Shown one piece after another: positions 2,411 to 61,036 of a stretch of DNA of 64,000 bases. The position numbers were made by a program, and so were the translations under genes. Origin of the DNA: a virus (taxonomy: Duplodnaviria > Heunggongvirae > Uroviricota > Caudoviricetes); the IMG/VR virus record IMGVR_UViG_3300028888_000051, positions 163,384 to 227,383 of that record. One strand, written 5' to 3'. Below the pieces are notes generated by a model, which had not been told where the DNA came from, did no database searches, and was given only the letters and a program-made list of their open reading frames with translations. Position 1 is the stretch's first letter, and each line of letters starts with the position of its first letter.

Positions 2411-2563
2411 ATTAAAATCTCCTTTTTAATTTCATCATATAGAATATAAGTTTTAATAAAAAAGTAAATAATAATTTTTCCAAAGTTAAGAAATCGCCTA
2501 ACTACAAAGAATTTAGCTCGGCTAATCTTAGCTATACATTTTTTATTTTTAACAAAACAAAAA

Positions 2564-2614
2564 ATATAATATAATAATATATAATTAATAATATAATATA
2601 ATATAATATAATAA
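2564..2614. repeat. (ATAAT/ATATA)n microsatellite in intergenic region
   Basis: aatataatataataatatataattaataatataatataatataatataat read directly. Confidence 0.7.
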
Positions 2615-2740
2615 AAAAAAACAAAAAATTATTTTAACTTTTGCATTAACACTAACTTTGGCTTTTTATTTTTAAAATTTTTTAAATTTAAATATTTATG
2701 TTTTTTTGAAATAAGTTCTAAATTCTAAAAGGAGAAAATT

Positions 2741-3298
2741 ATGCAAATTTATGGTAATCCTAATTTATCTGATAAATTTTTTGTTTATTTAGAAGATAAT
2801 AGTATTAATTATGTAAGAGATTTTGAAACAGCTAAGGGTTATATTCAAAATCCAAATTATAAAAAATGGTTTGGAAAAACTTTATATTGTACAAATGAAG
2901 ATATAGTAAAAGCTTATGATGGTAAATTGTACTTAAAAAGCAAAGTTCCAGAAAATCCAAATGAAATAAAAATATATGATAATAAATCTTTTTTTATTAA
3001 TAATTGTAAAAAATATATTGAAAATACATTAAATGATTTGAGTATTGAATATGGTTATGTATCTTTTTATCAATTAATATCTTGGAAAGATTCAAAAATA
3101 TTAAAAAACAAACAATTAGCTGAAAAAATGTTAAATTATCGTGATAAATTATATAATTTCTATTCAAAAATATACAATAAACATAAAAAACAACTAGAAA
3201 ATACATCAGAATTATTAGATTTATCAAATATTTACACAGAATTTTTAGAAAATATTCCAAAATTTAAAAAAGTTAAAGAAAATGAAACAAACAATTAG
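2741..3298 (+). CDS. hypothetical protein (185 aa)
   Basis: ATG ORF with aaaaggag RBS; AGTTCTAAAT motif 18 nt upstream. Confidence 0.55.
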   Translation: MQIYGNPNLSDKFFVYLEDNSINYVRDFETAKGYIQNPNYKKWFGKTLYCTNEDIVKAYDGKLYLKSKVPENPNEIKIYDNKSFFINNCKKYIENTLNDLSIEYGYVSFYQLISWKDSKILKNKQLAEKMLNYRDKLYNFYSKIYNKHKKQLENTSELLDLSNIYTEFLENIPKFKKVKENETNN

Positions 3299-4184
3299 AT
3301 TATATATAATACCTACTTATAAAAATCCTTATGTAGATGAATATTATCTATTTGATCAAAATAATAAAAATACACTAGATGTAGTATGGTTAGATAATGC
3401 TTTAATTGAATTAAAAAATAATTATAATATTTTACAAACAGAAATTTGTGGGGGAGAAATAACAGTATTATCTGATTTTTATTTTAATATTTTGTTTCAA
3501 TTAATAAAAATGAATTGTAATAAAATTATTGTATCTACAAATTTTATAGATTTTAATAAATCTATAATAAATCTTTGTGATATAATTAATGTAAAATATA
3601 ATTTTAATGGTTATAGTAAATATAAAACTATTGTTTATAACAATATAAAGGCAGCAATAGCTGAAAATAAAATTATTAATTTAAAATCACTAGATATATC
3701 TTGTAAAAACAATCATAAATTAATTATTGAAGACTTAAATAGATTAAAAATAAAATCTTGGGAAATTATTCCATATCATCAATCTATTTATTCAAAAGCT
3801 ATTCCATTAAATTATACTGAATATGAAGAATTAATAAGAAAATATTTATTTTCAGCAAAAGATATGAAGTTTGCTTTTCAAAATAAACTTCAATTAGATG
3901 AAATCTTACCAATAGATAACTATAATATTAAAAATATTTATATTACACCGAATAATAAATTTGCCATAACAGAATTTAACAAAAACAATAAATTTAAATT
4001 CGTTGAATATGATAATTTATCTAATTTACAGAAAAAAATAGAAGAAATGGAAAATTTACGTGATAATTTTTGTTATAATTGTGATTCTAAATTACGATGT
4101 CTAGCAAATAGATTAATAAATTTAAATTATACTGGTAAAAGTTGTAGTGGTTTTAAAGATTTAATAAAATATTATAACAAATAA
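3282..4184 (+). CDS. hypothetical protein (300 aa); possible degenerate paralog of the radical-SAM family at 21.7-25.5 kb (CGGE motif, C-terminal Cys cluster, no CxxxCxxC)
   Basis: EICGGEITVLSDFYFNILFQLI resembles GGE[IF]F...LF segment of ORFs 21696-25451; C-terminal CYNCDSKLRC...CSGF; no N-terminal Cys triad. Confidence 0.4.
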   Translation: MKQTIRLYIIPTYKNPYVDEYYLFDQNNKNTLDVVWLDNALIELKNNYNILQTEICGGEITVLSDFYFNILFQLIKMNCNKIIVSTNFIDFNKSIINLCDIINVKYNFNGYSKYKTIVYNNIKAAIAENKIINLKSLDISCKNNHKLIIEDLNRLKIKSWEIIPYHQSIYSKAIPLNYTEYEELIRKYLFSAKDMKFAFQNKLQLDEILPIDNYNIKNIYITPNNKFAITEFNKNNKFKFVEYDNLSNLQKKIEEMENLRDNFCYNCDSKLRCLANRLINLNYTGKSCSGFKDLIKYYNK

Positions 4185-4205
4185 ATATCCTTATGGAGTA
4201 GATAG

Positions 4206-4772
4206 ATGAATTTTATGTCAGTAATTTTAGAAGAGCGGAAATTAACAGCAAAAGATACTAAAAAGTTTGGTTCAACTATAGAAAATTTAAAAAACATAAT
4301 AAAAAAAGAAAAAGTTAAAATTAGCAAAAATATTAAAAAAGTAGGTAATTCAATGTATTGTGTAAATGCTTTACCTTATATTGCAAGTACTAGAGATGTA
4401 TTAAAAAAACCAGATATTGTATGTTCTATACGTGTAAATTGGAAACAAAAATCATATATTGGTATGTCTACAAATGATATTATTAATGAATTAAAAGAAC
4501 AATGGTGTTGGTATACTTCTATTGTTGATGAAGAGCATAGTCGTAATAAATTTAAAAATAAAGATATTATTTGTGTTGTATTTGATTCAAAAGAACAAGC
4601 TGAAAAAAATATGGAAATTTTTAAAAAATTGTTTATGACAGCTATTGAACAAGATTGTGTAGAAGAATACAAAAAGTTTAAACAAAATCCAGATAAAAGA
4701 GTTCTTAGTTTTGATAAACTTGTAGATAATGCATATGAATTATACGAAAAAGTTGATAAAGGTGAATTATAA
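4206..4772 (+). CDS. hypothetical protein (188 aa)
   Basis: ATG ORF in same-strand array. Confidence 0.5.
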   Translation: MNFMSVILEERKLTAKDTKKFGSTIENLKNIIKKEKVKISKNIKKVGNSMYCVNALPYIASTRDVLKKPDIVCSIRVNWKQKSYIGMSTNDIINELKEQWCWYTSIVDEEHSRNKFKNKDIICVVFDSKEQAEKNMEIFKKLFMTAIEQDCVEEYKKFKQNPDKRVLSFDKLVDNAYELYEKVDKGEL

Positions 4773-4793
4773 TTTTAATTCAAGGAGATACTA

Positions 4794-7061: not shown

Positions 7062-7064
7062 TTA

Positions 7065-12092: not shown

Positions 12093-12133
12093 TCTATAAG
12101 TTCTAAATAATGTCAATTGTTTTATAATTGATA

Positions 12134-12184
12134 GAAGAGTAATTAAGGTTTCCCCCTCCTTTCCCTGATTACTCTTCTTTTTTA
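12134..12184 (+). terminator. rho-independent terminator after folA
   Basis: GAAGAGTAAT ... ATTACTCTTC stem with C-rich loop, followed by TTTTTTATATT. Confidence 0.65.
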
Positions 12185-12299
12185 TATTATTATAGTCTTA
12201 TATACAGTTATTTTTGCATAGTTTTCTTATTTAATCTAAAAATAATCTTCTAAGTTCTAAATAAACAAGTAACATTTATAAAATTTTAAGTATGTTAAA

Positions 12300-15501: not shown

Positions 15502-15528
15502 GAGTAATCTTTGTTTTTGTTATTTCAA

Positions 15529-15560
15529 GAGAGTCATATTTCAGACTCTCTTTTTATTAT
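15529..15560 (+). terminator. rho-independent terminator after tail fiber gene
   Basis: AGAGAGTC atatttca GACTCTCT followed by TTTTTATTAT. Confidence 0.7.
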
Positions 15561-15626
15561 AATATAAAAGTTCTATAAAATAAATATGTTTAAACAGTTT
15601 TTAATTAATAAAATTAGGATCCTATA

Positions 15627-18611
15627 ATGTCAGAAAAACAATTACTTATCGAATCTTCTGATTTTAATCTTACTTGTAATTTATCAGAAAAAGACAGAGA
15701 AAATTTAACTGAATCTTTAAAAATTTCTGCAGGTAAACATGGTAATTTGATTGTCAAAAATATTCCATGTACAATACTTGATAGACGTAATCAAAATGGA
15801 CGTATATATCCTACAGCTTTAATGCAAAAAGCAATTAATGAAGCTATGCCAAAAATGAAAGCTAAAATGTTAGTGTGTTCTGCTTCTGAGCATCCTTCTG
15901 GAAGTTTTTGTGAACCAGCTAATATTTCACACGCTGTTATTAATGCATATATAAAAAATGTTGAAATTGAAGTTGAAGGTAAAAAAGAAAGACATAATGT
16001 ACTTTTTAATGATTGGGAAGTATTAAATGAAAAAAGTCAAGTTGCAGCTCATGTTCAGCAATTAATTTTATCTGGATTTGGTATAGGTACATCTATTCGT
16101 TCACTAGGTTCTTGTGATCCAGATGGTACAGTAACAGAATTAGAATATTTAGGAACTGATATTGTAGGACAACCTTCATCTTCTACTTATGTTAATATGC
16201 CAATTAATGAATCAGTAGAAGTAACAACAATTCCTTTAACAGAAACTTATGTTGTATCAGCTTCTGCTACAAATGTTGTAAGAGATTTAGATTCTGCATT
16301 AGCATTATCTCAACAAATTGATTCTGCTAATTTTGGTACTGTAAAAAAGACTTCTACAAAACTTGATTCTGAGGTTGATCCTAAAACGGGTGCAGAAACA
16401 ACAATGGTTACATTAGAAACTGAAACAGAAGATGAAGTATCAGAATTAGATCAAGCATTAATGATGGCTAAACAAGCCATGTTAAATGGAAAAGCTGATA
16501 TTGATTCTGTTACAATAGAAAATATTAAAGAAGAACAACCAAAAGAATCTGTTGAAAACAAAGATGATGAAAAAGCATTAAATGAAGAGAATAAAATAAC
16601 AGAAAATCATTTTGCTCCTTTACCTCATATTACTTCAATTACAAATCATATTTTATTGAATTATCCAAAAGAAAGCGAAGCTTATAAAGTAGCTTTACAT
16701 ATTCAAAATGATTTAATTACTAATAGATTAAAAGATAGACAAGCAGCTTTAGAAGAATTAAAAAAATATGTAGATATAACTAAAGACGAATATGTACCTG
16801 AATCTGTTATGAATGAAGTAGGTGTTGATAAGTTAATGGATGAAATTCGTAACATTATGTATAATGAAGGTTTGTCTCTTGAACAGGCTTGTCGTAAATA
16901 TTGTGAACATCATGAAAATATTCCATATGAATATGTATTGGAATATATGAGAACAAATCCAGTTACTGAATCAATTACAGAAGCTAAAGAAGAAAAGCAA
17001 GAAGATCCAAATGAAGGTAAGCAATATGTTTTGAAAACTTCTCAGGGTTTTGTTGCTATGGATGGTAATGCTATTTCATTTGTAGATAATCCTAAAGAAG
17101 CTATTCATTTTATTAAGGGTAAAGAAGAATCAGGAGTTGTTCATTTATCTGGAATTAATAAAATTCTTGAAACAATGGGTATATATGATGTACAAAAATA
17201 TTTTAAAAAAGGTACAACAGATATTTCCGCACCAAATGATATAAATATACAAAATGCCAAAAATGCAGGCATCGAAGTTAAAGAGTGTGGTAATATAGAT
17301 ATGCCAATGACTGAAGATAATGGCTCAAATACACGTTTTAAAGCTACTGTAAAAATTACTGATGAAAATGGAGAGTCTTCTGAAGATATTCCTGTTTCAG
17401 CAATTGATATGGAAGGTATTAATGCTGAAATTTCTAATCTTTATGATATGAAAAAACAAAAAGGTAATCCAGTTATCACTGTTACAGATACTACTTCTGG
17501 TCAACAATTTACATATAATCCAGAGTCTCGTCAAATTGAATTAATGAATATACAAACTGAAGCGAGTGGTGATTTAGAGCAAGATGGAAATAAACTTTCT
17601 ATGGAAATTGATGATAACAATAAAGTAGAAAAAGAATTTAATTCACCGGTACAAGCCGCAGTTGCAAAAGCAGGTATTGAAGCAGGCAAACTTGGTGGTG
17701 ATGTTCTTTTGAGTGAAGATGATGAAGATTCAGATACAGCTAAATGTGCATGGTGTGGTGAAGAATTTGAAAAATCTGCATTACGTAAAGAGAAAGATTT
17801 AGGTTATCTTTGTAACACTTGTGCAAAAGGAATTCAATCAAGAGAAGGTTCATTAACATTTGAAGAAGATTTAGCAAATGATCCACATATTTATAATCAA
17901 GGAAAAGATGAAATAGATAATGGTCAAGAACCTAATATGAATAAAATTGCGGATTCTATTCGCTATATTGCTAAAAAAACTGATTGCTCACTAAAAGATG
18001 CAATGGATATCTATGAAAAGATTACAGGTTTTAAATTTGATGAAAAAGATTCTATTTCAGAAGAAGTTCATAGACCAAATTATGAAGATATAGAACCAGG
18101 ATGGTATGCAGGAGCTCAAAATATTGGTGTTACTGGACCTTATGAATCAAAAGAAACATTGCTTGCAGATTTAGGTGAAGTAGCAGATAAAATTGATATT
18201 GAATATATTTCACCAGAAGATTTAGGGCTTGCTGCTGAATCATCTAAAATAGATGAAGTATTATATAATAAACCTAGTAAGGCTTCTGATCCATTAATTA
18301 AAACACCATTAGAAGAAGATGATGATGAATCTCCAGCGGTAAATATTTTATTTAAAAATATTGATTGGAATACTAAAGACTTTATGAATTCTATGATGGC
18401 TAATATGGAAAATGATGATCCTGTTAATATAGAAGATATAAAGTCAAAAGTAAAAGATTTACCAGATGAAGCAACTATTACTGTTAAAGTTAATGAAATA
18501 CCTTTATCTGATGATAGTTTACTTGAAAAATTTTTATTTGATAAACTTGGTAAAAAGTATGCCATGAAAGTAAATAATGCAGAAATGGCAAATATAAGTT
18601 GGGCAGTATAA
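15627..18611 (+). CDS. large acidic hypothetical protein (994 aa) with internal Cys4 zinc-ribbon (CAWCG...CNTC)
   Basis: long ATG ORF; AGTTCTATAAAATAAATA motif 41 nt upstream. Confidence 0.55.
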   Translation: MSEKQLLIESSDFNLTCNLSEKDRENLTESLKISAGKHGNLIVKNIPCTILDRRNQNGRIYPTALMQKAINEAMPKMKAKMLVCSASEHPSGSFCEPANISHAVINAYIKNVEIEVEGKKERHNVLFNDWEVLNEKSQVAAHVQQLILSGFGIGTSIRSLGSCDPDGTVTELEYLGTDIVGQPSSSTYVNMPINESVEVTTIPLTETYVVSASATNVVRDLDSALALSQQIDSANFGTVKKTSTKLDSEVDPKTGAETTMVTLETETEDEVSELDQALMMAKQAMLNGKADIDSVTIENIKEEQPKESVENKDDEKALNEENKITENHFAPLPHITSITNHILLNYPKESEAYKVALHIQNDLITNRLKDRQAALEELKKYVDITKDEYVPESVMNEVGVDKLMDEIRNIMYNEGLSLEQACRKYCEHHENIPYEYVLEYMRTNPVTESITEAKEEKQEDPNEGKQYVLKTSQGFVAMDGNAISFVDNPKEAIHFIKGKEESGVVHLSGINKILETMGIYDVQKYFKKGTTDISAPNDINIQNAKNAGIEVKECGNIDMPMTEDNGSNTRFKATVKITDENGESSEDIPVSAIDMEGINAEISNLYDMKKQKGNPVITVTDTTSGQQFTYNPESRQIELMNIQTEASGDLEQDGNKLSMEIDDNNKVEKEFNSPVQAAVAKAGIEAGKLGGDVLLSEDDEDSDTAKCAWCGEEFEKSALRKEKDLGYLCNTCAKGIQSREGSLTFEEDLANDPHIYNQGKDEIDNGQEPNMNKIADSIRYIAKKTDCSLKDAMDIYEKITGFKFDEKDSISEEVHRPNYEDIEPGWYAGAQNIGVTGPYESKETLLADLGEVADKIDIEYISPEDLGLAAESSKIDEVLYNKPSKASDPLIKTPLEEDDDESPAVNILFKNIDWNTKDFMNSMMANMENDDPVNIEDIKSKVKDLPDEATITVKVNEIPLSDDSLLEKFLFDKLGKKYAMKVNNAEMANISWAV

Positions 18612-18672
18612 AACAGTTCTAATTTAATAGTAAATAATTTTTATTAATCTAGATTTTAAGGAAAAACATATT

Positions 18673-19416: not shown

Positions 19417-19451
19417 AAAAAAGGATCGGTTATTTTATCGATCCTTTTTTA
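19417..19451 (+). terminator. rho-independent terminator
   Basis: AAAAAAGGATCG gttattttat CGATCCTTTTTT. Confidence 0.8.
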
Positions 19452-19472
19452 AACTAATTTAAGGTATAATGT

Positions 19473-23659: not shown

Positions 23660-23660
23660 A

Positions 23661-25464: not shown

Positions 25465-25503
25465 TAATTTATATTTTAGAACTGAAATGAGTTCTATATA
25501 TCA
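25465..25503. promoter_or_regulatory. divergent promoter-like region: back-to-back copies of the GTTCTA motif forming palindrome TAGAACT gaaatg AGTTCTA
   Basis: read directly; minus-strand copy faces radical-SAM operon, plus-strand copy faces ORF 25526. Confidence 0.55.
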
Positions 25504-27920: not shown

Positions 27921-27968
27921 AGTTCTAAATTTATATTAATATAAACAAATAATTTTAATGGTAATATT

Positions 27969-30163: not shown

Positions 30164-30453
30164 ATCTTAAATCCTAGTATCACTTGCCTCTTAGTTTGCT
30201 TGTTCAACTATTTTCATCAATAAAGATTAACTTTATATAGAACTATTTAAAATTAATGTAAAGCCTTAAGTTAAAAAAACTATATTTTGTAAATAGTTAT
30301 CTAGAAACAAACTCTTATATATTTCTAAATAAAAATAAGTTCTATAAATCAATGATTAATTTATTTAATTTCAATTTATTCATAGCTAAAAATTTATTTA
30401 TTATAAAATAATTAGTTAAATATAACTTTAACTTAAAGGATAAAATAATTACC

Positions 30454-36171: not shown

Positions 36172-36199
36172 ATCTGTTAGTATTAATTATATATAAAAT

Positions 36200-37018: not shown

Positions 37019-37034
37019 TTGTATCCCCTTTAAT

Positions 37035-37229
37035 TTATTTATCTTTTTGTGAATAAAGTTTATTTATTATCTTTTTTCTACCATTACTAGTTAAAAATAA
37101 TATTGGTGAAAAAAGAATAATAAGTAATTTTGTTTTTGGTTTAAACATTCGATTAAATTGCATAATAATTATAAATGCCCATATTGTAATAAAATAAGCA
37201 CATAAAATACGTAAAATTAAAATACTCAT
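37035..37229 (-). CDS. small membrane protein (64 aa, 2 TM)
   Basis: hydrophobic composition; 16 nt downstream of SPFH gene. Confidence 0.4.
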   Translation of the reverse strand: MSILILRILCAYFITIWAFIIIMQFNRMFKPKTKLLIILFSPILFLTSNGRKKIINKLYSQKDK

Positions 37230-37244
37230 TTATTATTTTCTCCT

Positions 37245-37871: not shown

Positions 37872-37882
37872 TAAAGGTCTCT

Positions 37883-39782: not shown

Positions 39783-39849
39783 ATGATTAATTCCTATAAT
39801 TAATTGATATAATTAATATAAATATATACTTTAGATAGTAAAGCCATTT

Positions 39850-40981: not shown

Positions 40982-41027
40982 TAATTAAATGTATTATAAC
41001 AAAATAATCAATGAGAGTAAAACCTTT

Positions 41028-42377: not shown

Positions 42378-42489
42378 TTATATCTCCTTTTCTATTTTCT
42401 TAAATACGTATACCATAACAATAATCCACAAGCACATGATAAACATAATGCTAGAACAAATATTCCTAAGTTATTTGTTATATCTTCTA

Positions 42490-42618: not shown

Positions 42619-42826
42619 TTAGAACTCTATCTTCTATTAGAGTATTTTTTAATTTATTAAGCTCTTGTTTTAGTTCATCTAAAGTCAAATTTTTATCATT
42701 AGTCATATTAATTCTACCAAGATGCTTATACCAAGTGATTAACAAACCTGTTTCAGTGTCTAAAATGTAAAAATCATCCTCATATCTAGTTAAAATAAAC
42801 TCATAACTATTATACCCAGATGTCAA
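42611..42826 (-). CDS. hypothetical protein (71 aa)
   Basis: ORF. Confidence 0.4.
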   Translation of the reverse strand: MTSGYNSYEFILTRYEDDFYILDTETGLLITWYKHLGRINMTNDKNLTLDELKQELNKLKNTLIEDRVLND

Positions 42827-48028: not shown

Positions 48029-48380
48029 ACATACTTTCTATAAGTCCAGCCATACATAAAGCTCCTGAATCTTTTATGATTTCTTTAAATCCAAAAGATT
48101 TTAGCCATAAATTTACCATTAAAACTAAAAATCCAATCATTAAAAACCTTACAAATGTGAATAATTTACTTTTAAATACAAAATATAATAAACATTTTGA
48201 ATTGTAAAACCATATTTTAATAAAAGTTTTATTTATGATATGAATATATTAAGAGGTCAAAAATAATACTTAAAATTTTTTAAAATATTATTATAATTAA
48301 CTGGTTCTAATTAATAGTTATCAAGTTCCACTAATTTAATATTTCTATTTTATTTAACATTTAACTATTAAGATATAAAA

Positions 48381-49761: not shown

Positions 49762-50253
49762 ATGGCTGAGCATAAAAAAAGAGGCACATATGAATTAACA
49801 TCTGAAGAATTAGCATCATCTGAAATGGTATTTATTGCCTGTACTTTATTAGAAAGTCGTGGTTATCCAGGATTTATGGAAATGCTAAATGTTTTGGACA
49901 ATCCTTCACTTGTAATAAAATTAATTCGTCTTTTTTATGGTATGACTATAAAATTTCCATCGATACAAGAATTTCAAGATTGTCTAAAAGCTTCAGAATA
50001 TATATTTACAGATTTTCATAAAAAAGTAAATGACATGCTTGTTGTAAAACCACTAGATATACGTAATCATATGCATATAACAGAGGAAGAAGAAGATAAA
50101 TTACTAAAATTATTTGATGAATGGGTACTTTATATGCATAAAGCTGGTTATCCAATTGAAAAATTGATGCATATTAATAGAAATATAACAAAAAAACGTA
50201 TTGAATCAGTTGTAACAGGTAAAAGAGCAAAAAAGAGTAAAAAGATTAGCTAG
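49762..50253 (+). CDS. hypothetical protein (163 aa)
   Basis: ORF. Confidence 0.45.
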   Translation: MAEHKKRGTYELTSEELASSEMVFIACTLLESRGYPGFMEMLNVLDNPSLVIKLIRLFYGMTIKFPSIQEFQDCLKASEYIFTDFHKKVNDMLVVKPLDIRNHMHITEEEEDKLLKLFDEWVLYMHKAGYPIEKLMHINRNITKKRIESVVTGKRAKKSKKIS

Positions 50254-50289
50254 TTCTATAATATAGTTTAAAATTTAAGGATATATACA

Positions 50290-50991: not shown

Positions 50992-51210
50992 ATGTATGAA
51001 AAATTAATAGATCTTAAAGATAATTTTTTATTTTGTATTGCAACTACATTTGTTGGAATTTTAATTATGATAATAGCTAGTGTTATTATAATTATAACAC
51101 TTCCAATGTATTATTTATTTTGGATAAATCCAGTATTTGAAATTTATCAAAATTTAATTTGGAAAATATATGATATATTATTTCAAATTGGATCAGATGA
51201 TGAAATTTAA
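50992..51210 (+). CDS. small membrane protein (72 aa)
   Basis: TM segments. Confidence 0.4.
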   Translation: MYEKLIDLKDNFLFCIATTFVGILIMIIASVIIIITLPMYYLFWINPVFEIYQNLIWKIYDILFQIGSDDEI

Positions 51211-54200
51211 ATTAAGTCTTGCAATTCTTCAGAAGATTGATCTATAAAATTTGAATAATCATTTACTTTTTCTTTTATTTGATTAGAAGAAATATATTCA
51301 TATTGCGGAAAATCTGAATAATTAAGCTGTGCATTATATATAAAACCAACAATTACATCAGCTAAATCTTTTAATTCAGTAGTTCGAGTTACTTTTCCTC
51401 TATCAAAAACAAGAGCCGATAATTCTTTTCTGAGTTTTGGACATATTCCTACTTTTACCTGTCCTAATTCCATTAAAGTAGATGCATTAACATAAGGTTC
51501 AAGTTTTATATCGACTGAAACTTTATTTACTACTTCGAAACATCCCGATTTAGCTAAATTTTGTTGAAAAATTTCTCCATTCCATTGATCGCTTGATACT
51601 GTATGAATTAGCATATTACGTTCAATTACTAAATTTATTAAAAAAGTTTCTATTGCATGTATATCTATTTTATTTCTTGCATTCACAGCTATAAGTAAAT
51701 CAACTACATATATTGTTTCATTTTCTTTTTTATTTTCATTATAACGCCATTCTTTATGACCAATACATATACCAGCATCACATTGTCCAGAATCACCACC
51801 TCCTGCTAAATCTACATGACAATAACGTTTTGCAAAAGGAGCTCTTTTAAATATCCATCTACCATCTGTTAATTGTTCCCATAAATTATATTCATCTAGT
51901 AAAGCTAATATATCATTATTATCACTTATATCAGCTTTAATATTAAATTCTGGAGGCAATTCAGCATCTTCAATTTTTGATATATCTTTAAAGACTGTAC
52001 TGTTATCTACAGTTGTCATTCCTGCAATATCTTGAATAGACTGATCTAATTGTAATTCAAATTTTTCTTTATATACAGTTGGAACATTTATTACTTCACA
52101 TCCAATGGGTGGTATATAATTTCCATCTTCTAAAGCTTTCAATTCACCAGGATCGGTAAATATTTTAGAAGGAATTGAGCCATTACCAACAAGAACAGGA
52201 AATGTAGAGCCATCACCTAAAAACTCAGGATCTTCTTTAACTTCCCAAAGCCGAGGCATAAGAATAAGAATAGATGGATCATTTTTTGGCAATCGACGTA
52301 TGTATTCACCAATAGGACTATTTGTTGTACGAGCTGATGATACAACTGACTGAAATACTAAAGGACTTCCTTGAAAACGTGAACTAAAACGATTATCAAC
52401 TGAATTAAGAAGTGCCAAAGCTTCATCTACACCTTTTTCATTGATCTCATCCATAAAGCTATTTACTATATTCAAACCTATAGTATGAGTTATACCTGAA
52501 CCAGATGTAATAATAATATTGTCTGGAAAATATATCGTGCCTGTCGATTTTTCCACATTAAATGGTATTGGACAATGTGGATCCGATAAATCAAAATTTT
52601 CAAAAGATTGCATTCGCATAACTCTTTGAAAACACGGCATTGTTTCCATAAGTTTAACAAATGGTAATAAATTTGTTTCATAAACTTGTTTTAAAGTCAT
52701 AGAAATAATAACATTTGCTATTGTTGCATCACTATCTATATTAAATACTGCTCTAGGATAACGTAAACATAATATACGATATAAAACATATAAAAAAGCT
52801 TTACGAGCAATTGTTGACTTACCACAATTATGTGCAATTATACCAGCCTTTAAAGCAAAATTATGATTTTTTTCTGTAGTTATATCATAAACTTGTTGTT
52901 TACCTATATATTCTATAGAAATTATTTTATGATTGTATATTTTTTTACGCTTGTAATTTTCTTTAGCCCCTAAAGTAGGATCATACCAAGGCTCTCTTGT
53001 ATGAATAAATGCTAATAATTCAATGTATTTTTGATTTTCTTTTCCATGGAATCTTGCAATAGTAGCTAATACTTGTTTAGCCAATATAATTGCTTTTTCT
53101 TCAGGACTTTTGTTGGCTTTTAAATTACGCATATTTTCAGCCATTTTTTTAGAAATATTTCTAGCCTTTTCTGTTTTATTTCTTTCTATTAAAGTTTTAC
53201 TTGCTCTTTGTCTATATTCTTCACTATGTGGACCATTCCAACCGGCAAGCGAAGCTTTTCTTTGGTGTTCTGAATCTTGATGTAGTTTATTCCATCCAAT
53301 TTTTCTTTTTGCTTCTATCTCTTCATAATCTAAGCGAGCTTTATAGGTAATATGACTTTTTATTCCTTTTTGTCTTCTGTATTCTTTAAATTCATCACCT
53401 CTAATTGAAGCATTATATTCTTTCCATCTTCTACCTCCAACTTTAGCGTGATATTCCCAATGATATTTGTGAGGTATAATAGCTAAATTTTGAGGTCTAT
53501 CATCTAATTTATTAAAATTTTTATGGTGAACAACTTGTCCAGTTTTATATAAAGTTTTCCATTTACCTACTATTTGATATCTTTTTTCCCATTTTTCAGT
53601 AGTATTATTTTTTATTTGAATATATCCTTTATCACTAATTTTTGAATAATAAGGCATCATAGATTCACCAGATTTTAATCCAGTATCTATACTTTTCCAT
53701 TTATTTTTTCTTGTTAAAAATCTATGATCTGATGTACATTTAATTATTTCACCATTGTCTAAAGTTATTTTATACACATCTTTTATACCACTACAAAATA
53801 CATTAATTATCTTATCTGGTTCCCAAGTTTTATTAAATGTATTAAATGATAATACCCATTCATTATTATAATTATTAAGTAATTCATAAATTGTTTTATT
53901 ACCATTTAAAGTAGCTACTATCGTATCACCGGTTAAGCAACCAATACTTCCACCAAATATAGTTTTTCTTACTGGTGAGCCTTCCCTAAACATATATTCA
54001 AGTTGTTGTCGCCAATAAGGATATAATGTAGCATTACTATTATACATATAAAATTTACCAGATAAAAATTCTTCAATATTAGGCATAGGTCGTCTATATA
54101 AAAGATTATCAATTTGATCTGTTAAATCAGAATCCTGATTTGTTAATGTCAAATATAAAGCAATACGTTTTTGTATTTCTTGTTGCTTTTTAAATTCATC

Positions 54201-54344
54201 TGGCATATAATGCTCTTCATAATATGCTAAAATGTCTATAAAATCTTGTGACATAATAACATTTTGAAGTTCATTTGCATTATTAAATGAAACTATTGGA
54301 AGATTTTCTAATTTTTTTGCAATATCAGTAGGAAGTTGTTCCAT
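51207..54344 (-). CDS. terminase large subunit (T4 gp17-like) interrupted by an intein in the Walker A P-loop; extein about 674 aa
   Basis: extein junction restores GGSIG|CGKST Walker A; C-terminal nuclease motifs CHVDLAGGGDSGQCDAG; intein blocks CLTGDTIV ... VYDITTEKNHNFALKAGIIAHN|C. Confidence 0.85.
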   Translation of the reverse strand: MEQLPTDIAKKLENLPIVSFNNANELQNVIMSQDFIDILAYYEEHYMPDEFKKQQEIQKRIALYLTLTNQDSDLTDQIDNLLYRRPMPNIEEFLSGKFYMYNSNATLYPYWRQQLEYMFREGSPVRKTIFGGSIGCLTGDTIVATLNGNKTIYELLNNYNNEWVLSFNTFNKTWEPDKIINVFCSGIKDVYKITLDNGEIIKCTSDHRFLTRKNKWKSIDTGLKSGESMMPYYSKISDKGYIQIKNNTTEKWEKRYQIVGKWKTLYKTGQVVHHKNFNKLDDRPQNLAIIPHKYHWEYHAKVGGRRWKEYNASIRGDEFKEYRRQKGIKSHITYKARLDYEEIEAKRKIGWNKLHQDSEHQRKASLAGWNGPHSEEYRQRASKTLIERNKTEKARNISKKMAENMRNLKANKSPEEKAIILAKQVLATIARFHGKENQKYIELLAFIHTREPWYDPTLGAKENYKRKKIYNHKIISIEYIGKQQVYDITTEKNHNFALKAGIIAHNCGKSTIARKAFLYVLYRILCLRYPRAVFNIDSDATIANVIISMTLKQVYETNLLPFVKLMETMPCFQRVMRMQSFENFDLSDPHCPIPFNVEKSTGTIYFPDNIIITSGSGITHTIGLNIVNSFMDEINEKGVDEALALLNSVDNRFSSRFQGSPLVFQSVVSSARTTNSPIGEYIRRLPKNDPSILILMPRLWEVKEDPEFLGDGSTFPVLVGNGSIPSKIFTDPGELKALEDGNYIPPIGCEVINVPTVYKEKFELQLDQSIQDIAGMTTVDNSTVFKDISKIEDAELPPEFNIKADISDNNDILALLDEYNLWEQLTDGRWIFKRAPFAKRYCHVDLAGGGDSGQCDAGICIGHKEWRYNENKKENETIYVVDLLIAVNARNKIDIHAIETFLINLVIERNMLIHTVSSDQWNGEIFQQNLAKSGCFEVVNKVSVDIKLEPYVNASTLMELGQVKVGICPKLRKELSALVFDRGKVTRTTELKDLADVIVGFIYNAQLNYSDFPQYEYISSNQIKEKVNDYSNFIDQSSEELQDLI
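52827..53939 (-). mobile_element. intein (371 aa) with HNH homing endonuclease domain, inserted in TerL P-loop
   Basis: N-terminal Cys codon TGC at 53937-53939, block B TSDHRFLT, HNH VVHHKNFNKLDDRPQNLAIIPHKYHWEYH, terminal HN followed by +1 Cys (TGT 52824-52826); boundaries verified by codon counting. Confidence 0.85.
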
Positions 54345-54376: not shown

Positions 54377-54427
54377 ATTATATAGAACATAATCAAAAGT
54401 AAATATATAAAGTTCTATTTAAAATAG
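54377..54427. promoter_or_regulatory. divergent promoter-like region between terminase (minus) and tail-tube (plus) genes with GTTCTA motif on each strand
   Basis: TATAGAAC (54381-54388, minus-strand GTTCTATA) and AGTTCTATTTAAAATAG (54411-54427). Confidence 0.5.
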
Positions 54428-54526
54428 AAAAGTATTAACAGAAAAAAGAACTTAAAATAGCATTGTTCTAATTTATAAAGAATTAATCCCCTATTAAGAC
54501 ATTATATTTATAAGGAATAATAACAC

Positions 54527-55084: not shown

Positions 55085-55114
55085 TTAGACTTTTACATTT
55101 TGTTATTCTTTTTG

Positions 55115-55146
55115 AGGGACTTGAAATATAGTCCCTTATTTATTTT
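55115..55146 (+). terminator. rho-independent terminator after tube-like gene
   Basis: AGGGACT tgaaatat AGTCCCT followed by TATTTATTTTT. Confidence 0.6.
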
Positions 55147-55217
55147 TACGGTTTTACATTTTTTATATTTAGTTCTATTATATATAAAGTTTAAATTAAT
55201 ATTGATAAAGTGAGAAT

Positions 55218-57167
55218 ATGAAAAATATTTGTAAAAATTGCGGCAAAGAATATGAATTTGAACCAAAGCATGGAACCTATAAATTTAAGTATTGTTCTCA
55301 AGAATGTAAACATGCCTTTGCGAAAAAAGATGAAGAACCACAATATAGGATTTGTGAATATTGTGGTAAAGAATATTGGTGGAGTAATTCGTTTAAAAAT
55401 TATAAAGAATATGTACATATAGATACAAAACGTTTTTGTTCTGCTGAGTGTAGTAAAAATTATAAAAAAGAAAAAATTAAACAAACATGTTTAAAAAAAT
55501 ATGGTGTTGAATATATTTCACAAACTGCAGATGTTAAAGAAAAAATGAAAAATGCATGGAAAAATAAATCAGAAAAAGAATTAAAATTGCGTCAAGAAAG
55601 TAGAAAGCAAACTAATTTAAAAAAATATGGTGTTGAACATGTATCTAAATTATCTGAAATTAAAGAAAAAGTAAAGCAAACAAATTTAAAAAAATTTGGT
55701 GCTGAATTTTATACACAAACAGATGAATATAAAGAAAAATATAAACAAACCAATCTTAAAAAGTATGGTGTAGAGCATTGTTCACAAGTACCAAAAATAG
55801 CAGAAAAAATAAAAAATAGTCTATTAAATAAATCTAAAGAAGAATGGGTTAAAATTATAGATAAGAGAAAGCATACTAATTTAGAGAAGTATGGTACAGA
55901 AAGTGCTTCTCAGAATAATGATATAAAACAAAAAGTAAAACAAACTAATTTAAAAAAATTTGGAAACGAAATAGCAATTCAATCAGATATTATACAATCT
56001 AAAATTAAACAAAATAATCTTGAAAAATATGGTGTAAAATATAGTATAGCATCTAATGAAGTACAAGAAAAAATTCGTACTACAAATTTGAAAAGATATA
56101 ATTATGAATATCCATTTCAATCTGAAGAATTAAGAAAAATTATGGAAGAAAATAGAAAAAAGACGAATCTTAAAAAATATGGTACAGAAAACATTAGTCA
56201 AGTTAAAGAATTTAAAGAAAAAGCAAAAAATACATGTTTGAAGAAATATGGTGTACCATATAATTGTATGACTGAAAATTGTTTAGAAGTAGGACATAGT
56301 ACTATATCTAAAATAAATTTGGCTTTTAAAAATAAATTAGATAAATTAAATATTCAAAATAAACTAGAATTTCATATTGATAAATGGAGTTATGATTTTT
56401 TATGTAATGATAAGTTTTTAATTGAAATTAATCCTAGCTATACACATAATTCATCTAATACTAAAAAACGATTGGAATTTATGAAGCCAAAAGATAAATA
56501 CTATCATTTTAACAAAACTAAATTAGCTTATGAAAATGGTTATCAGTGTATTCATATATGGGATTGGGATGATAAAGAAAAAATTTTAAATATACTTGTT
56601 GATAAAAAGAAAATATATGCTAGAAAATTAATATTAAAAAATGTATCAAATGAAGAATGTAATGAGTTTTTAAATTCATATCATTTACAAAATACATGTA
56701 AAGGACAAACTATTAGATTAGGTTTATATAAAGATAATGAATTGATACAATTAATGACATTTGGAAAAGCGAGATATACAAAAAATTATGAATATGAATT
56801 ATTAAGATTATGTACAAAAGCAGAATATAAAGTTATCGGAGGAGCAGAAAAATTATTTAAACATTTTTTAATTATATATAATCCAAAATCTATAATTTCT
56901 TATTGTGATAATTCAAAATTTTCAGGAGAAGTATACAAAAGATTAAATATGAATTTGAAAGATTATGGAACACCAAGAAAGCATTGGTATCATATAGAAA
57001 AAAATAAACATATTACAGAAGCACTTTTACTTCAAAGAGGTTATTCACAATTACACGGTGATAAAGAACATATAAAAGGTGAAAATAATGAAAAACTGAT
57101 GTTAGAAGCAGGATATGTAGAAATATATGATTCTGGTCAAAGTACATATGTTTGGCATAAAAACTAA
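55218..57167 (+). CDS. homing-endonuclease-like protein: N-terminal Cys4 zinc ribbons, about 10 tandem NUMOD3-like 23-aa repeats, C-terminal Vsr/DUF559-like nuclease domain
   Basis: CKNCG...CSQEC and CEYCG...CSAEC; repeats TNLKKYGVEHVSKLSEIKEKVKQ; C-terminal YDFLCNDKFLIEINPSYTHN ... NGYQCIHIWDWDD matches vDF...IE.DG..H...Gw.vlRf pattern. Confidence 0.55.
   Translation: MKNICKNCGKEYEFEPKHGTYKFKYCSQECKHAFAKKDEEPQYRICEYCGKEYWWSNSFKNYKEYVHIDTKRFCSAECSKNYKKEKIKQTCLKKYGVEYISQTADVKEKMKNAWKNKSEKELKLRQESRKQTNLKKYGVEHVSKLSEIKEKVKQTNLKKFGAEFYTQTDEYKEKYKQTNLKKYGVEHCSQVPKIAEKIKNSLLNKSKEEWVKIIDKRKHTNLEKYGTESASQNNDIKQKVKQTNLKKFGNEIAIQSDIIQSKIKQNNLEKYGVKYSIASNEVQEKIRTTNLKRYNYEYPFQSEELRKIMEENRKKTNLKKYGTENISQVKEFKEKAKNTCLKKYGVPYNCMTENCLEVGHSTISKINLAFKNKLDKLNIQNKLEFHIDKWSYDFLCNDKFLIEINPSYTHNSSNTKKRLEFMKPKDKYYHFNKTKLAYENGYQCIHIWDWDDKEKILNILVDKKKIYARKLILKNVSNEECNEFLNSYHLQNTCKGQTIRLGLYKDNELIQLMTFGKARYTKNYEYELLRLCTKAEYKVIGGAEKLFKHFLIIYNPKSIISYCDNSKFSGEVYKRLNMNLKDYGTPRKHWYHIEKNKHITEALLLQRGYSQLHGDKEHIKGENNEKLMLEAGYVEIYDSGQSTYVWHKN
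55482..56274 (+). repeat. in-frame tandem coding repeats (about 69-bp units, about 10 copies, some with insertions)
   Basis: protein-level repeats TNLKKYGVE..SQ..EIKEKVKQ read from translation. Confidence 0.7.
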
Positions 57168-57232
57168 AAGGTTTTACATTTCTATATAAATGATATATAT
57201 TTAATTAAGTATTAAATAGTGGCAAATATAAT

Positions 57233-58856: not shown

Positions 58857-58892
58857 GTTCTATGAAAAGTTAGTTAAGTTAAGGGTGATAAA

Positions 58893-59231: not shown

Positions 59232-60326
59232 ATGGCTAAAAAAATAGAAAAAAAAGTTCAAAAGGAAAATTCTCGTGTAACTTCAGCATTATCATTACTT
59301 CGTAAAAAATTTGGTGATGATGCAGCAATGACTTTTAATGACATAGGTGTTACAAAAGTAGATGTAATTCCTTCTGGTTCTTTAAAATTAGACAAGATAT
59401 TAGGAATTGGTGGATGGCCACGTGGCAGAGTTACGCTTTTATGGGGTGATTATAGTTCTGGTAAATCAACGATATGTTTACAAGCCGTAGCTAATGCACA
59501 AAAAGAAAATTTAGTTTGTGCTTATGTTGATATGGAACATGCTTTAGATCCTATTTATGCTGAAGCACTAGGTTGTGATATGTCTGAATTAATTTTACTT
59601 CAACCAGATGGTGGTGAACAAGCACTAGAAGCTATTAAATTATTAGCACAAGAAAAAGCAGCTGATTTAATTATTCTTGATTCAATTGTTGCATGTGTAC
59701 CAGCAAGTGAATTAGATGGTGAATTATCTGATATGAATATTGGACGTCAAGCAAAGTTATTTAGTTCATTTTTTAAACAAGTTACTCCAGCACTTGAAAT
59801 AGCAAATTGTGCTTTAATTTGTACAAATCAAGTTCGCCAAGCTCCAGGTAAATATGGAGATGCATCTGTTTTACCTTGTGGAGAAGCTCAAAAATTCTTT
59901 GCTTCTATTATTTGCCGTACTCGTAGACAACAATCTCAAAAAGAAGAAAGTAAAGAAGGTGATATTATTGCAAATCAAATTAGTGTAACTACAGAAAAGA
60001 ATAAATTGGCCCCTCCATTCAGAAAAGCAGAATTAATGATTTATTATGGTAAAGGTTTTTCAGCAGATAATGAAATGTTAGATTTAGCTGTAGAATTTGG
60101 TATATTAACAAAAGCTGGAGCATTTTATAAATATAAAGGAGAAACTATTGGACAAGGATCTGCTAAAACTAAAATTTGGTTAGAAGAACATAAAGATATT
60201 AAAAATAATATAATGGAACAAGTTAAAGAAATTCTTATGAAGCCTAATAATGAAAAAATGATTTTAGAAAAAGAAGCAGAGTCAGAGTTAAATTATGATC
60301 CGGATACAGGTGAAATAATAGAATAA
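59232..60326 (+). CDS. recA: RecA-family recombinase (bacterial RecA-like; functional analogue of T4 UvsX)
   Basis: Walker A GDYSSGKST, LLQPDGGEQALE, ILDSIVA Walker B, CTNQVRQAPG loop-2-like region. Confidence 0.85.
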   Translation: MAKKIEKKVQKENSRVTSALSLLRKKFGDDAAMTFNDIGVTKVDVIPSGSLKLDKILGIGGWPRGRVTLLWGDYSSGKSTICLQAVANAQKENLVCAYVDMEHALDPIYAEALGCDMSELILLQPDGGEQALEAIKLLAQEKAADLIILDSIVACVPASELDGELSDMNIGRQAKLFSSFFKQVTPALEIANCALICTNQVRQAPGKYGDASVLPCGEAQKFFASIICRTRRQQSQKEESKEGDIIANQISVTTEKNKLAPPFRKAELMIYYGKGFSADNEMLDLAVEFGILTKAGAFYKYKGETIGQGSAKTKIWLEEHKDIKNNIMEQVKEILMKPNNEKMILEKEAESELNYDPDTGEIIE

Positions 60327-60337
60327 GGAGAAATAAA

Positions 60338-60706
60338 ATGCTAGAATTTTTAAAAAAATTGTTAAGAATTGGCGAAAAATGTTATTGTGAAGGTATATGT
60401 CATTGTAAAAAGATTACATGTGATGGTCCAGATTTAGAAGAAGATTTTGATGAAACAATTACACGTAAAGATTATAAAATTACTATACCTTATAGTATAA
60501 ATGCAGAATTAAAAAAAGAAGGTATTTCGATTTCAGCTACAAAATATAATGGAAAACCTTCGTGTGTACAAATGTTTAAAGTAGTTGATGGAAAAGTAAA
60601 ATACATCGGTACATTAAAAACATATATGAACGTTAAATCTTTTAAAGATAACAACGTTTGTAATTTTAGTCGTGAAAACTTAATTTATAAAGAAAAGGAA
60701 AATTAA
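60338..60706 (+). CDS. small Cys-rich protein (122 aa)
   Basis: CYCEGICHCKKITCDGPD. Confidence 0.45.
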   Translation: MLEFLKKLLRIGEKCYCEGICHCKKITCDGPDLEEDFDETITRKDYKITIPYSINAELKKEGISISATKYNGKPSCVQMFKVVDGKVKYIGTLKTYMNVKSFKDNNVCNFSRENLIYKEKEN

Positions 60707-60707
60707 A

Positions 60708-60965
60708 ATGACAGAACAAGTAGATGTTGAAGTCGGTGGTTTAAATACTGAAAGATTAAAATCTATTATTGAACGTATAGAAAATGTAGATAATGAGATT
60801 AATGCATTAAAAGAAGATAGAAAAGGTATAATGCTTGAAGCAAAATCTGCAGGTTTTGATACAAAAGCTATTACCCATGTTATTAAACAAAGAAAAAAGA
60901 ATAAAGCACAGCGAGATGAAGAGGAATTAGTTTTCGAAACCTATGAAAGAGCTGTTGGTTTATAA
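60708..60965 (+). CDS. gapR: GapR-like nucleoid-associated DNA-binding protein (DUF2312 family)
   Basis: LKSIIERIENVDNEINALKEDRKGIMLEAKSAGFDTKAITHVIKQRKKNKAQRDEEELVFETYERAVG closely parallels Caulobacter GapR LKSIIDRVERLE...AEAKGNGFDVKVLKKVVRIRKQD...EEDAILDLY..AIG. Confidence 0.8.
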   Translation: MTEQVDVEVGGLNTERLKSIIERIENVDNEINALKEDRKGIMLEAKSAGFDTKAITHVIKQRKKNKAQRDEEELVFETYERAVGL

Positions 60966-61003
60966 TACATTATAAATGGAAAAATAATTTAAATAATTTA
61001 GTA

Positions 61004-61036
61004 GAATCCATATAAAGTATGGATTCTATTTTTATA
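61004..61036 (+). terminator. rho-independent terminator overlapping promoter-like motif
   Basis: GAATCCATA taaag TATGGATTC followed by TATTTTTATATTT. Confidence 0.7.

Follow-up and report, generated by a model that had tools for sequence, protein, structure and literature searches.

A strict intergenic GTTCTA hexamer is a probable core promoter element in a family of uncultured ~230-kb phages

We analyzed a 64,000-nt stretch of DNA (here, the window), part of a 227-kb metagenomic contig of an uncultured phage, together with ~20 related contigs of uncultured ~230-kb phages (tail-tube identity 49 to 92%). Across this family, the hexamer GTTCTA is enriched between genes, oriented with them, strict in sequence, avoided inside genes, conserved, and held at a constant distance from start codons and from the 5' hairpin of an RNA. 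From this pattern we infer that GTTCTA, within the consensus A-GTTCTA-WWWWAT-A, is probably the core promoter element of a phage-specific transcription class of this family; promoter function, start-site position, timing, and the nature of the recognizing factor are deduced from sequence. Comparison of the DNA and of the tail tube with GenBank phages returned no match for this phage. The best cultured match of its terminase, at 31% identity, was to Pseudomonas and Xanthomonas phages of ~114 kb, on which ground a T4-like affiliation was rejected. Genes in the relatives were crude ORF calls and some loci were near-duplicates; sites were de-duplicated by 40-nt context, and the site profile was built from 117 of them. 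Intergenic regions were defined as stretches of at least 20 nt (6.3% of the window).

Total GTTCTA occurrence in the window (32 copies) matched chance (33 ± 6); therefore, the overall count is ordinary and only the distribution is abnormal. Intergenic stretches held 17 copies against a Markov expectation of 1.9 (maximum of 8 in 2,000 simulations), whereas coding DNA held 14, where codon shuffling gave 40.4 ± 6.5 (none of 500 shuffles went as low), with depletion on both the sense (4 versus 13.5 expected) and antisense (10 versus 26.8 expected) strands. The extended form GTTCTAWAW was found 14 times, compared to 6.7 ± 2.8 in shuffles. All nine copies in co-directional intergenic regions were oriented with the genes (binomial P = 0.004), and in divergent regions copies formed back-to-back pairs (25477 with 25491 and 54383 with 54412), with spacers of 8 and 23 nt, the first pair lying inside a 74-bp region. 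Two further copies lie shortly 3' of terminators. In all, ~19 exact copies in the window serve ~16 protein-gene units and one small RNA (Table 1).

Table 1. GTTCTA copies in the window and the predicted small RNA
Feature	Position	Strand	Context
GTTCTA	2715..2720	+	Predicted start site 2727, 14 nt before ATG of 185-aa gene at 2741; Shine-Dalgarno (SD) kept
GTTCTA	12100..12105	+	Adjoins folA stop; candidate promoter of small RNA
GTTCTA	12254..12259	+	Upstream of 316-aa gene at 12300; conserved before L074 ortholog
GTTCTA	15570..15575	+	18 nt after terminator 15527-15552; upstream of prohead-protease fusion gene at 15627
GTTCTA	18616..18621	+	Upstream of 237-aa gene at 18673
GTTCTA	25477..25482	-	For minus-strand four-gene operon 21696-25451; back to back with 25491..25496
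GTTCTA	25491..25496	+	Upstream of 167-aa gene at 25526
GTTCTA	27922..27927	+	Upstream of 233-aa gene at 27969
GTTCTA	30238..30243	-	Upstream of gene 29363-30163 (-); overlaps sigma-70-like promoter, -35 box GCTTTACA at 30258-30264
GTTCTA	30339..30344	+	Upstream of tail-fiber-like gene at 30454
GTTCTA	42452..42457	-	Upstream of SHMT (41028-42377, minus); conserved before SHMT in L008
GTTCTA	42620..42625	-	Second, distal copy on SHMT side; overlaps last codons of doubtful 71-aa ORF
GTTCTA	48304..48309	+	Upstream of 136-aa gene at 48381; conserved in L005
GTTCTA	50253..50258	+	Overlaps stop codon of preceding gene; upstream of 225-aa gene at 50290; conserved in L005
GTTCTA	54383..54388	-	Upstream of intein-containing terminase (51207-54344, minus); conserved in L005 and L007
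GTTCTA	54412..54417	+	Distal copy before tail-tube gene; kept only in closest relatives
GTTCTA	54465..54470	+	Proximal copy before tail-tube gene at 54527
GTTCTA	55172..55177	+	After terminator 55113-55138; upstream of DUF7487 homing-endonuclease gene; overlaps sigma-70-like promoter, -35 box GTTTTACA at 55151-55157
GTTCTA	58857..58862	+	Upstream of 78-aa gene at 58893
Predicted ~70-nt non-coding RNA	12112..12184	+	Two hairpins from predicted start site, conserved C-rich loop UUUCCCCCUCCUUUCCC, T-run terminator

The relatives gave the same picture. GTTCTA was the top intergenic hexamer in the ~20 related contigs (pooled Fisher P = 3 × 10−99) and followed gene orientation in 74 cases against 6 (P = 5 × 10−16). 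In coding DNA of the relatives it was the most depleted among 120 hexamers of the same composition, and its antisense coding count was again low (47 versus 93 ± 9 expected). The hexamer was kept upstream of the tail tube, terminase, sheath, muramidase, and SHMT genes while the flanks diverged; the proximal tail-tube copy persisted in all relatives, even at 51% protein identity, amid diverging flanks. The arrangement of terminator and GTTCTA ahead of the prohead-protease fusion gene recurs in L074. The motif was absent in the more distant phages L075 and L077.

Pooled over the family, GTTCTA was enriched 26-fold intergenically, whereas all 18 single-base variants were at background (for example, ATTCTA 2.5-fold, TTTCTA 0.8-fold, and CTTCTA 0.3-fold) and showed no orientation bias. 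The hexamer was followed by at least five A/T in six positions in 96% of intergenic but only 40% of coding copies, and preceded by A in 65% versus 17%. In the 117-site profile, positions +6 to +9 accept A or T only (A 44 to 62, T 47 to 70), T occupies position +11 in 60% of sites, and a purine occupies position +12 in 84%. Ahead of the hexamer, the only base preferred is an A immediately before the G (-1): in the search for -35 conservation, every column farther upstream stayed at or below 0.11 bit, and the TG at -15/-14 of extended -10 promoters was absent from the profile. A -10-like hexamer 17 bp downstream of GTTCTA was also looked for and none was found; therefore, GTTCTA is not itself a -35 box.

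The spacing to downstream features points to a start site. Upstream of nine different, unrelated genes in the relatives, the arrangement is GTTCTA-N6-ATG, which leaves no room for an SD, and the N termini are conserved from that ATG; independent gene calls agree with the SD-less start in L010. No gene starts were found at spacers 7 to 14 after GTTCTA, and those led by an SD all have spacers of at least 15, most copies lying 20 to 115 nt upstream of genes with a strong SD of their own. The copy adjoining folA shows the same geometry: in three phages it is followed by exactly N6 and then by a two-hairpin RNA ending in a terminator. In the window this predicted small RNA has a z of -7.3; it is conserved after folA, with changed stems, in L078 and L081, and comparison with Rfam matched no family. 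The first-pass annotation had cited this copy as one that need not be a promoter. It instead ranks among the strongest promoter candidates, since a conserved small RNA that ends in a terminator starts just after it. Since the N6 spacing is shared by SD-less ATGs and the 5' hairpin of an RNA, we infer that GTTCTA would occupy approximately -12 to -7, with no -35 box, and that transcription would begin 7 nt past the hexamer, at position +12, mostly with A or G.

Late (virion or lysis) genes carrying GTTCTA include those for the tail tube, terminase, prohead protease, sheath, and muramidase and the fiber-like gene, all of which the element would drive. It may also drive some metabolic genes, one small RNA, and several leaderless mRNAs in relatives; beyond the classic late set, it stands before SHMT, the minus-strand operon, and the homing endonuclease gene. 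Given these downstream genes, GTTCTA is most likely a late or middle-late promoter. Radical-SAM matches also occur in the window, without assignment to single genes of the minus-strand operon. The hexamer is not TAnnnT, and these phages also have a separate canonical sigma-70-like class, G[C/T]TTTAC[a/t]-N17-TATAAT, which overlaps GTTCTA in a few hybrid promoters; these data therefore suggest that the element is recognized either by an RNA polymerase equipped with a factor that the phage specifies (gp55-like or another sigma-like protein) or by a polymerase of the phage itself. A search of 77 kb of the ~227-kb phage and of ~35 loci of relatives and more distant phages turned up no sigma factor, no gp55-like protein, and no phage RNA polymerase. 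Within the same 77 kb and the relatives' loci, Pfam and PHROGs detected no gp55, gp33, or sliding clamp (gp45), and no DFDGD or NADFD polymerase motif appeared when the window and every locus analyzed were translated in all six frames.

We could not match the GTTCTA sequence to any described promoter class. T4-type late promoters carry TATAAATA at -13 to -6, which gp55 recognizes together with gp33 and the gp45 clamp, and phage Aeh1 has the variant CTAAATA (PMC1524935). Like GTTCTA, they consist of a short, near-invariant -10-region element without a -35 box, used family-wide before virion genes, with a start site 6 to 7 nt downstream. In GTTCTA, however, the hexamer is obligatory and then merely A/T follows, which departs from the TATAAATA/CTAAATA consensus. 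Kinship with T4-type late promoters, raised in the first-pass annotation, is thus not borne out: after CTA only A/T is required, not AATA, and the terminase is not T4-like. Promoters of the sigma-70/sigma-A type share with GTTCTA the distance from the -10 hexamer to the inferred start and an A/T-rich region after it. They differ in that, with the start placed at +12, GTTCTA at -12 to -7 presents T-11 and A-7 where A-11 and T-7 are near-universal and does not fit the TAnnnT hexamer; nor is there a -35 box 16 to 18 bp upstream, a compatible TTTAC being found in only ~6 of 117 sites. Extended -10 promoters differ by their TGn. Phage SPO1 promoter classes (gp28, gp33/34) have both -35 and -10 boxes, with sequences other than GTTCTA, and the late motifs of AR9 and phiKZ (AACA-N6-TW and TATG) are also different. 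What the SPO1 sigma systems and phiKZ/AR9 polymerase promoters share with GTTCTA is a large lytic phage that redirects transcription to promoters with a consensus of their own, unlike that of the host-type early promoters. The LexA/Cheo-box operator (GAAC-N4-GTTC) differs as well, since GTTCTA occurs as single copies and as two inverted pairs with unequal spacers.

That unmodified host RNA polymerase reads these sites, with GTTC extending (-16 to -13) a -10 box that starts at TA, or with GTTCTA as the -10 element of a host alternative sigma factor and no phage factor, appears unlikely to us. A TATAAT-like hexamer (at least five of six matches) does begin at the TA of GTTCTA in 39 of 117 sites, and the GT..C core may loosely resemble ECF-type -10 elements. 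About 6 of the 117 sites have a TTTAC box 17 bp before the TA (in the window, 55151 with 55172 and 30264 with 30243); this is host sigma-70 geometry, with a start ~4 nt further downstream, and part of the set may therefore also be read by a host sigma factor. However, T is present at -7 of the putative TA-starting box in only 40% of sites, and 93% of sites are without a -35-like box. Moreover, placing TA at -12/-11 would shift the start ~4 nt into the coding sequence of the nine SD-less genes (conserved ATG at +12) and into the small RNA's first hairpin, and the same intergenic regions contain a distinct canonical -35/-10 class.

We consider it very unlikely that GTTCTA binds a phage activator or repressor beside a weak AT-rich core promoter. 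A motif that is short, strict, and oriented and lies near the starts of transcription units would suit such a site, and distribution alone cannot separate a factor site overlapping the -10 region from a sigma-read element; yet GTTCTA is not palindromic, occurs in single copies, and keeps its N6 spacing to start codons and the RNA 5' end to the nucleotide, as is typical of a core element. The variable back-to-back spacing also argues against a dimeric operator, and no HTH regulator was seen adjoining the motif. An action of GUUCUA in RNA, as a processing site, stability element, or alternative ribosome-binding signal in 5' leaders, would explain the location in 5' regions and the orientation with genes, and in the nine SD-less genes the 6 nt between motif and ATG is also optimal SD spacing. 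We nevertheless judge this highly improbable: genes avoid the hexamer no less on their antisense strand, on which a signal acting in RNA should make no difference; most copies stand well upstream of genes already equipped with a strong SD; one copy stands at the head of a non-coding RNA; and others come right after terminators or back to back in the 74-bp divergent spacer.

Returning to a promoter specificity at the -10 position, its extension to one without described counterpart that also takes part in a translation-level takeover seems rather unlikely. If true, an element that departs from the A-11/T-7 pattern to which known sigma factors conform would call for a sigma-like factor or polymerase of a new kind, and the class would yield leaderless late mRNAs together with a conserved small RNA in which the loop CCCCUCCUUUCCC reproduces the anti-Shine-Dalgarno tail of 16S rRNA. 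Such an RNA could mask SD sites while leaderless phage messages were still translated.

The promoter-like reading proposed in the first-pass annotation is thus well supported and sharpened to a strict hexamer with -10-element geometry. A recurrent, gene-oriented intergenic motif exists for exact GTTCTA and not for the loose definition: TTCTATA, admitted as a member, occurs 43 times in the window against 34 ± 6 expected. Orientation with the downstream gene, the two back-to-back junctions, and the intergenic-versus-coding contrast all held, and the figure of more than 20 genes is to be lowered to the count given above. Among the 24 sites listed, 15 are exact copies; nine (5152, 8136, 20285, 30321, 57177, 59192, 61022, 2436, and 29294) are unsupported because all single-base variants are at background, and four exact copies had been missed (starting at 30238, 42452, 42620, and 54465). 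The virion genes named as targets (fiber-like, tube, and terminase) were retained, but tk, recA, and DNA polymerase were not, their sites being variants or terminator hairpins. Coordinates given there lie 1 to 2 nt upstream of the G. Two of its candidates were rejected as promoters: 61022 is the 3' arm of a terminator hairpin (61000-61030), and 29294 is the loop of a hairpin with a T-run (29284-29321) that is conserved in L074.

The window (26% GC, about 82 genes) is about 6.3% intergenic (4006 bp), and the exact hexamer GTTCTA occurred in it 32 times, as often as in shuffled sequence (33 ± 6); the signal therefore resides wholly in placement. In a de novo comparison of k-mers between upstream intergenic and coding DNA, GTTCTA ranked first, with 17 copies upstream versus 14 in about 60 kb of coding DNA on both strands (P = 1 × 10−16); the corresponding counts for AGTTCTA were 12 and 2. 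Only 1.9 intergenic copies were expected, and the maximum in 2000 simulations was 8. Coding DNA was depleted of the hexamer (14 observed versus 40.4 ± 6.5 in codon-shuffled sequence, with none of 500 shuffles giving so small a count), on the sense strand (4 versus 13.5 expected) as well as the antisense strand (10 versus 26.8 expected). All nine copies in co-directional spacers were oriented with the genes, copies in divergent regions stood back to back, and the one convergent region contained none. GTTCTAWAW was found 14 times versus 6.7 expected from shuffles. The first-pass annotation had proposed an oriented intergenic motif, to be checked by motif discovery against coding DNA and abandoned if equally frequent there or randomly oriented; for exact GTTCTA, that proposal is borne out.

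The motif proved strict. TTCTATA, initially admitted as an alternative core, occurred 43 times versus 34 expected, barely above chance. Pooled over the phage family, GTTCTA was enriched 26-fold upstream of genes, and all 18 of its single-substitution variants lay at the level of composition-matched hexamers without strand bias. The loose form of the motif thus did not hold up; degenerate variants such as TTCTATA and ATTCTA were rejected, and nine of the 24 sites first proposed fall away. Two of these nine are parts of hairpins with T-runs: site 61022 lies within one, and site 29294 in the loop of another, a hairpin that the fetched locus L074 shares upstream of tk. The replication genes said to bear the motif (tk, recA, and DNA polymerase) have no exact copy, and three to four exact copies had been missed (see table). 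At least five of the six bases after the hexamer were A/T in 96% of intergenic versus 40% of coding copies, and A preceded it in 65% versus 17%; residual intragenic copies mostly miss this flanking context.

The window comes from a metagenome contig of 227,378 bp (ENA ERZ27257205, k141_5434835). No nucleotide match was found among 50,697 GenBank phage records, nor any match to the tail-tube protein in GenBank phage records, and the best match of the intein-bearing terminase, at 31% identity, was to ~114-kb Pseudomonas and Xanthomonas phages; the earlier label "T4-like" is thus unjustified beyond generic myovirus modules. Metagenomes yielded 50 tail-tube homologs (49 to 92% identity), several on contigs of 200 to 246 kb, and about 20 loci around them were fetched for comparison. 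The single protein had no match in IMG/VR, where an alignment of homologs was required as query. GTTCTA ranked first or among the first of the intergenic hexamers in each of these related loci. The relatives held 132 intergenic copies versus 117 in coding DNA of roughly 15-fold greater extent (pooled Fisher P = 3 × 10−99), and in co-directional spacers 74 copies followed the gene direction versus 6 against it (P = 5 × 10−16). GTTCTA was also the most depleted of 120 same-composition hexamers in their coding DNA (85 versus 147), most strongly on the antisense strand. All relatives kept a copy (GTTCTAATTTATAA or GTTCTATTATAA) 48 to 62 nt before the start codon of the tail-tube gene, surrounded by sequence that could not be aligned between them. 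The hexamer was likewise conserved upstream of terminase, SHMT, and the ortholog of the gene at 12300, as well as beyond the terminator 3′ of a 581-aa structural gene; in relatives it also preceded sheath and muramidase genes. The motif was absent from L075 and L077, two IMG/VR contigs (38 and 12 kb) of more distant phages whose 581-aa structural protein is 48 to 58% identical, which suggests that the class is confined to the ~230-kb phage family.

The profile of 117 de-duplicated sites was A(68%)-GTTCTA-W-W-W-W-A(69%)-T(60%)-A/G(84% purine), with G and C nearly absent from the six bases 3′ of the hexamer. No position upstream of the leading A was conserved in this profile, indicating that there is no −35 box, and a reading of the sites as T4 CTAAATA elements was rejected by the same profile. 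GTTCTA as itself a −35 box was also rejected, since no −10-like hexamer lies 16 to 18 bp downstream and at 2715 a mere 26 nt separate the copy from the ATG (median distance to the start codon, 51 nt). In relatives, nine unrelated genes, a muramidase gene among them, showed the arrangement GTTCTA-N6-ATG without a Shine-Dalgarno (SD) sequence; the window has no such case. Orthologs of these genes (e.g., MPDIVLNIPENSRFSS, MPNITLHIPENSRFSS, and MPDITLNLPSNSRFSS) show conservation from this start codon on, and the source pipeline called identical starts in L010. Leaderless mRNAs are predicted for the nine genes. No gene started at spacers of 7 to 14 after GTTCTA, and SD-led starts appeared from spacer 15 onward only, as expected if RNA begins at +12 from the G, so that a message is either leaderless or of SD length. 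At 2715, the predicted RNA begins AAAAGGAG..., just before the SD. Predicted start sites in the window include 2727, 12112, 15582, and 54477. From three independent features, namely, the N6-ATG genes, the spacer gap, and the RNA that follows folA, we infer that GTTCTA occupies about −12 to −7, where a −10 box would lie.

In the case of folA, GTTCTA is followed by exactly N6 and then by the G that opens a candidate two-hairpin RNA ending in a T-run, with counterparts in the fetched loci L078 and L081. Stem sequences vary among the three, and the MAFFT-based consensus fold was poor for that reason; folded singly, they agree in a common shape (z = −7.3, −7.0, and −4.8). A 14-nt C-rich loop, GGUUUCCCC(C)UCCUUUCCC, is conserved in all three and contains CCUCCUUU, the anti-SD sequence of 16S rRNA. 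No Rfam family matched the RNA.

Coordinates of predicted promoter elements, terminators, RNAs, and genes
Feature	Locus	Position	Strand	Remark
GTTCTA, newly listed	window	30238-30243	-	
GTTCTA, newly listed	window	42452-42457	-	
GTTCTA, newly listed	window	42620-42625	-	
GTTCTA, newly listed	window	54465-54470	+	
GTTCTA-N6-ATG gene	L010	8906		
GTTCTA-N6-ATG gene	L010	15485	-	
GTTCTA-N6-ATG gene	L020	8965		
GTTCTA-N6-ATG gene	L020	14029		
GTTCTA-N6-ATG gene	L018	6136		
GTTCTA-N6-ATG gene	L019	8701		
GTTCTA-N6-ATG gene	L019	1470	-	
GTTCTA-N6-ATG gene	L026	15591	-	
GTTCTA-N6-ATG gene	L074	3419		
Candidate small RNA, ~70 nt	window	12112-12184	+	directly after folA; 5′ hairpin and terminator hairpin
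Small RNA counterpart	L078	7606-7672		identical N6 arrangement
Small RNA counterpart	L081	7643-7714		identical N6 arrangement
Second motif	window	39838-39844	-	
Second motif	window	41017-41023	-	
Second motif	window	48204-48210	-	precedes cluster of small minus-strand ORFs
Second motif	window	57171-57177	+	
Second motif	window	30258-30264	-	overlaps GTTCTA
Second motif	window	55151-55157	+	overlaps GTTCTA
Terminator-like hairpin, T-run	window	15527-15552	+	
Terminator-like hairpin, T-run	window	about 19420-19452	+	
Terminator-like hairpin, T-run	window	29284-29321	-	
Terminator-like hairpin, T-run	window	36197-36229	both	
Terminator-like hairpin, T-run	window	55113-55138	+	
Terminator-like hairpin, T-run	window	61000-61030	+	
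Prohead-protease fusion	window	15627-18611	+	single 994-aa ORF
Four-gene operon	window	21696-25451	-	GTTCTA promoter predicted upstream
QueC-like gene	window	42944-43648	-	
Large terminase	window	51207-54344	-	intein with HNH endonuclease; split or otherwise arranged in relatives
DUF7487 homing endonuclease	window	55218-57167	+	649 aa; after tail-tube gene

Many spacers without GTTCTA carried a second motif, tttG[C/T]TTTAC[a/t], which is family-wide (many sites in L005 to L026) and is followed 17 bp later by a TATAAT-like box, with a TAnnnT hexamer there at 21 of 43 sites. It is located before small genes without assigned function and homing endonucleases. This class looks like the host sigma-70/sigma-A type and probably represents host-type (early) promoters; a generic sigma-70 consensus scan was uninformative in DNA of this GC content (117 matches versus 144 expected). 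The coexistence of such a class implies that GTTCTA has a distinct specificity. Where the two motifs overlap, the TA of GTTCTA lies 17 bp after TTTACA, which suggests that a few promoters are dual-use (TTTAC box plus GTTCTA). A GTTCTA copy stood directly 3′ of two terminator-like hairpins, and another hairpin, in the sole convergent spacer, would terminate in both directions.

These data are best read as identifying GTTCTA as a putative promoter of the −10-only type that serves a phage-specific, mainly late transcription class and at which a polymerase carrying a phage-specified factor would read the hexamer and start RNA synthesis at +12 from its G. Three features make it less likely that host polymerase alone reads GTTCTA, namely, a would-be −7 position that lacks T, the missing −35 box, and the geometry of the leaderless genes and small RNA. 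Avoidance on the antisense strand makes it unlikely that the hexamer acts at the RNA level, as do the copies just 3′ of terminators, a back-to-back pair within 74 bp, and the folA copy, which heads a noncoding unit. A regulator binding site fits poorly with single, nonpalindromic copies whose spacing is exact to the nucleotide. A Cheo/LexA-like palindrome was rejected, given that copies occur singly and inverted pairs differ in their spacing.

The closest known kind of element is the T4-type late promoter, a short, invariant −10-region element that lacks a −35 box and precedes late genes (PMC1524935), and GTTCTA shares these traits. However, the GTTCTA sites fail its defining consensus, so the kinship for which a comparison had been suggested is not supported; no T4-type late-promoter proteins were seen in the 77 kb of the phage covered here or in the loci of its relatives. 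In a limited full-text search, which is no proof of novelty, GTTCTA did not turn up as a phage promoter. For a large lytic phage, a late promoter specific to its family is ordinary in concept and expected biology; what seems unusual is a hexamer departing from TAnnnT, together with the presumed leaderless transcripts and a small RNA apparently driven by GTTCTA. The outcome is a sequence-only transcription map for a ~230-kb phage family without a cultured member; it covers terminators, leaderless genes, a small RNA, and two promoter classes, one phage-specific and one host-type. The predicted start site of the GTTCTA class is precise to the nucleotide, and the hexamer is strict enough for annotating transcription units in the family's metagenomic contigs. 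It may also serve as bait for its reader protein, expected to be a divergent sigma-like factor or polymerase.

The recognizing factor was not found with Pfam and PHROGs (window proteins and 113 novel proteins of relatives), by tblastn with E. coli RpoD regions 2 to 4 plus a DFDGD regular expression (one weak match, a HAD-like protein), by PDB sequence searches of five proteins without assigned function, or in a walk of about 40 kb on IMG/VR contig 3300028797_000096. No sigma-like or polymerase gene of this kind was seen in 77 kb of this phage (of 227 kb) or in the relatives' loci. A RecA search for the host returned only about 43% matches, to unrelated MAGs; the anaerobic ribonucleotide reductase present in relatives and the strong AAAGGAG SD usage hint at an anaerobic, SD-using bacterium.

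Recognizable genes in the window encode SbcCD, DHFR, thymidine kinase, RecA, a GapR-like protein, DNA polymerase, SHMT, a QueC-like protein, two radical-SAM proteins (individual genes unmapped), a ClpP near a Band-7 protein, a prohead-protease fusion, fiber-like proteins, the tail tube, and homing endonucleases. The QueC-like and radical-SAM genes may be part of a 7-deazaguanine DNA-modification pathway; if so, the G of GTTCTA could be a modified base. In the prohead-protease fusion, the protease domain occupies the first ~250 aa and is followed by about 740 residues without assigned function. Also present in the phage are genes for two ClpP-type proteases, GroEL, GroES, and a glutaredoxin-like protein; they lie just upstream of the window (L003 913-5603) and within it (36251-38470, minus strand), and one ClpP is two genes away from a Band-7/SPFH protein.
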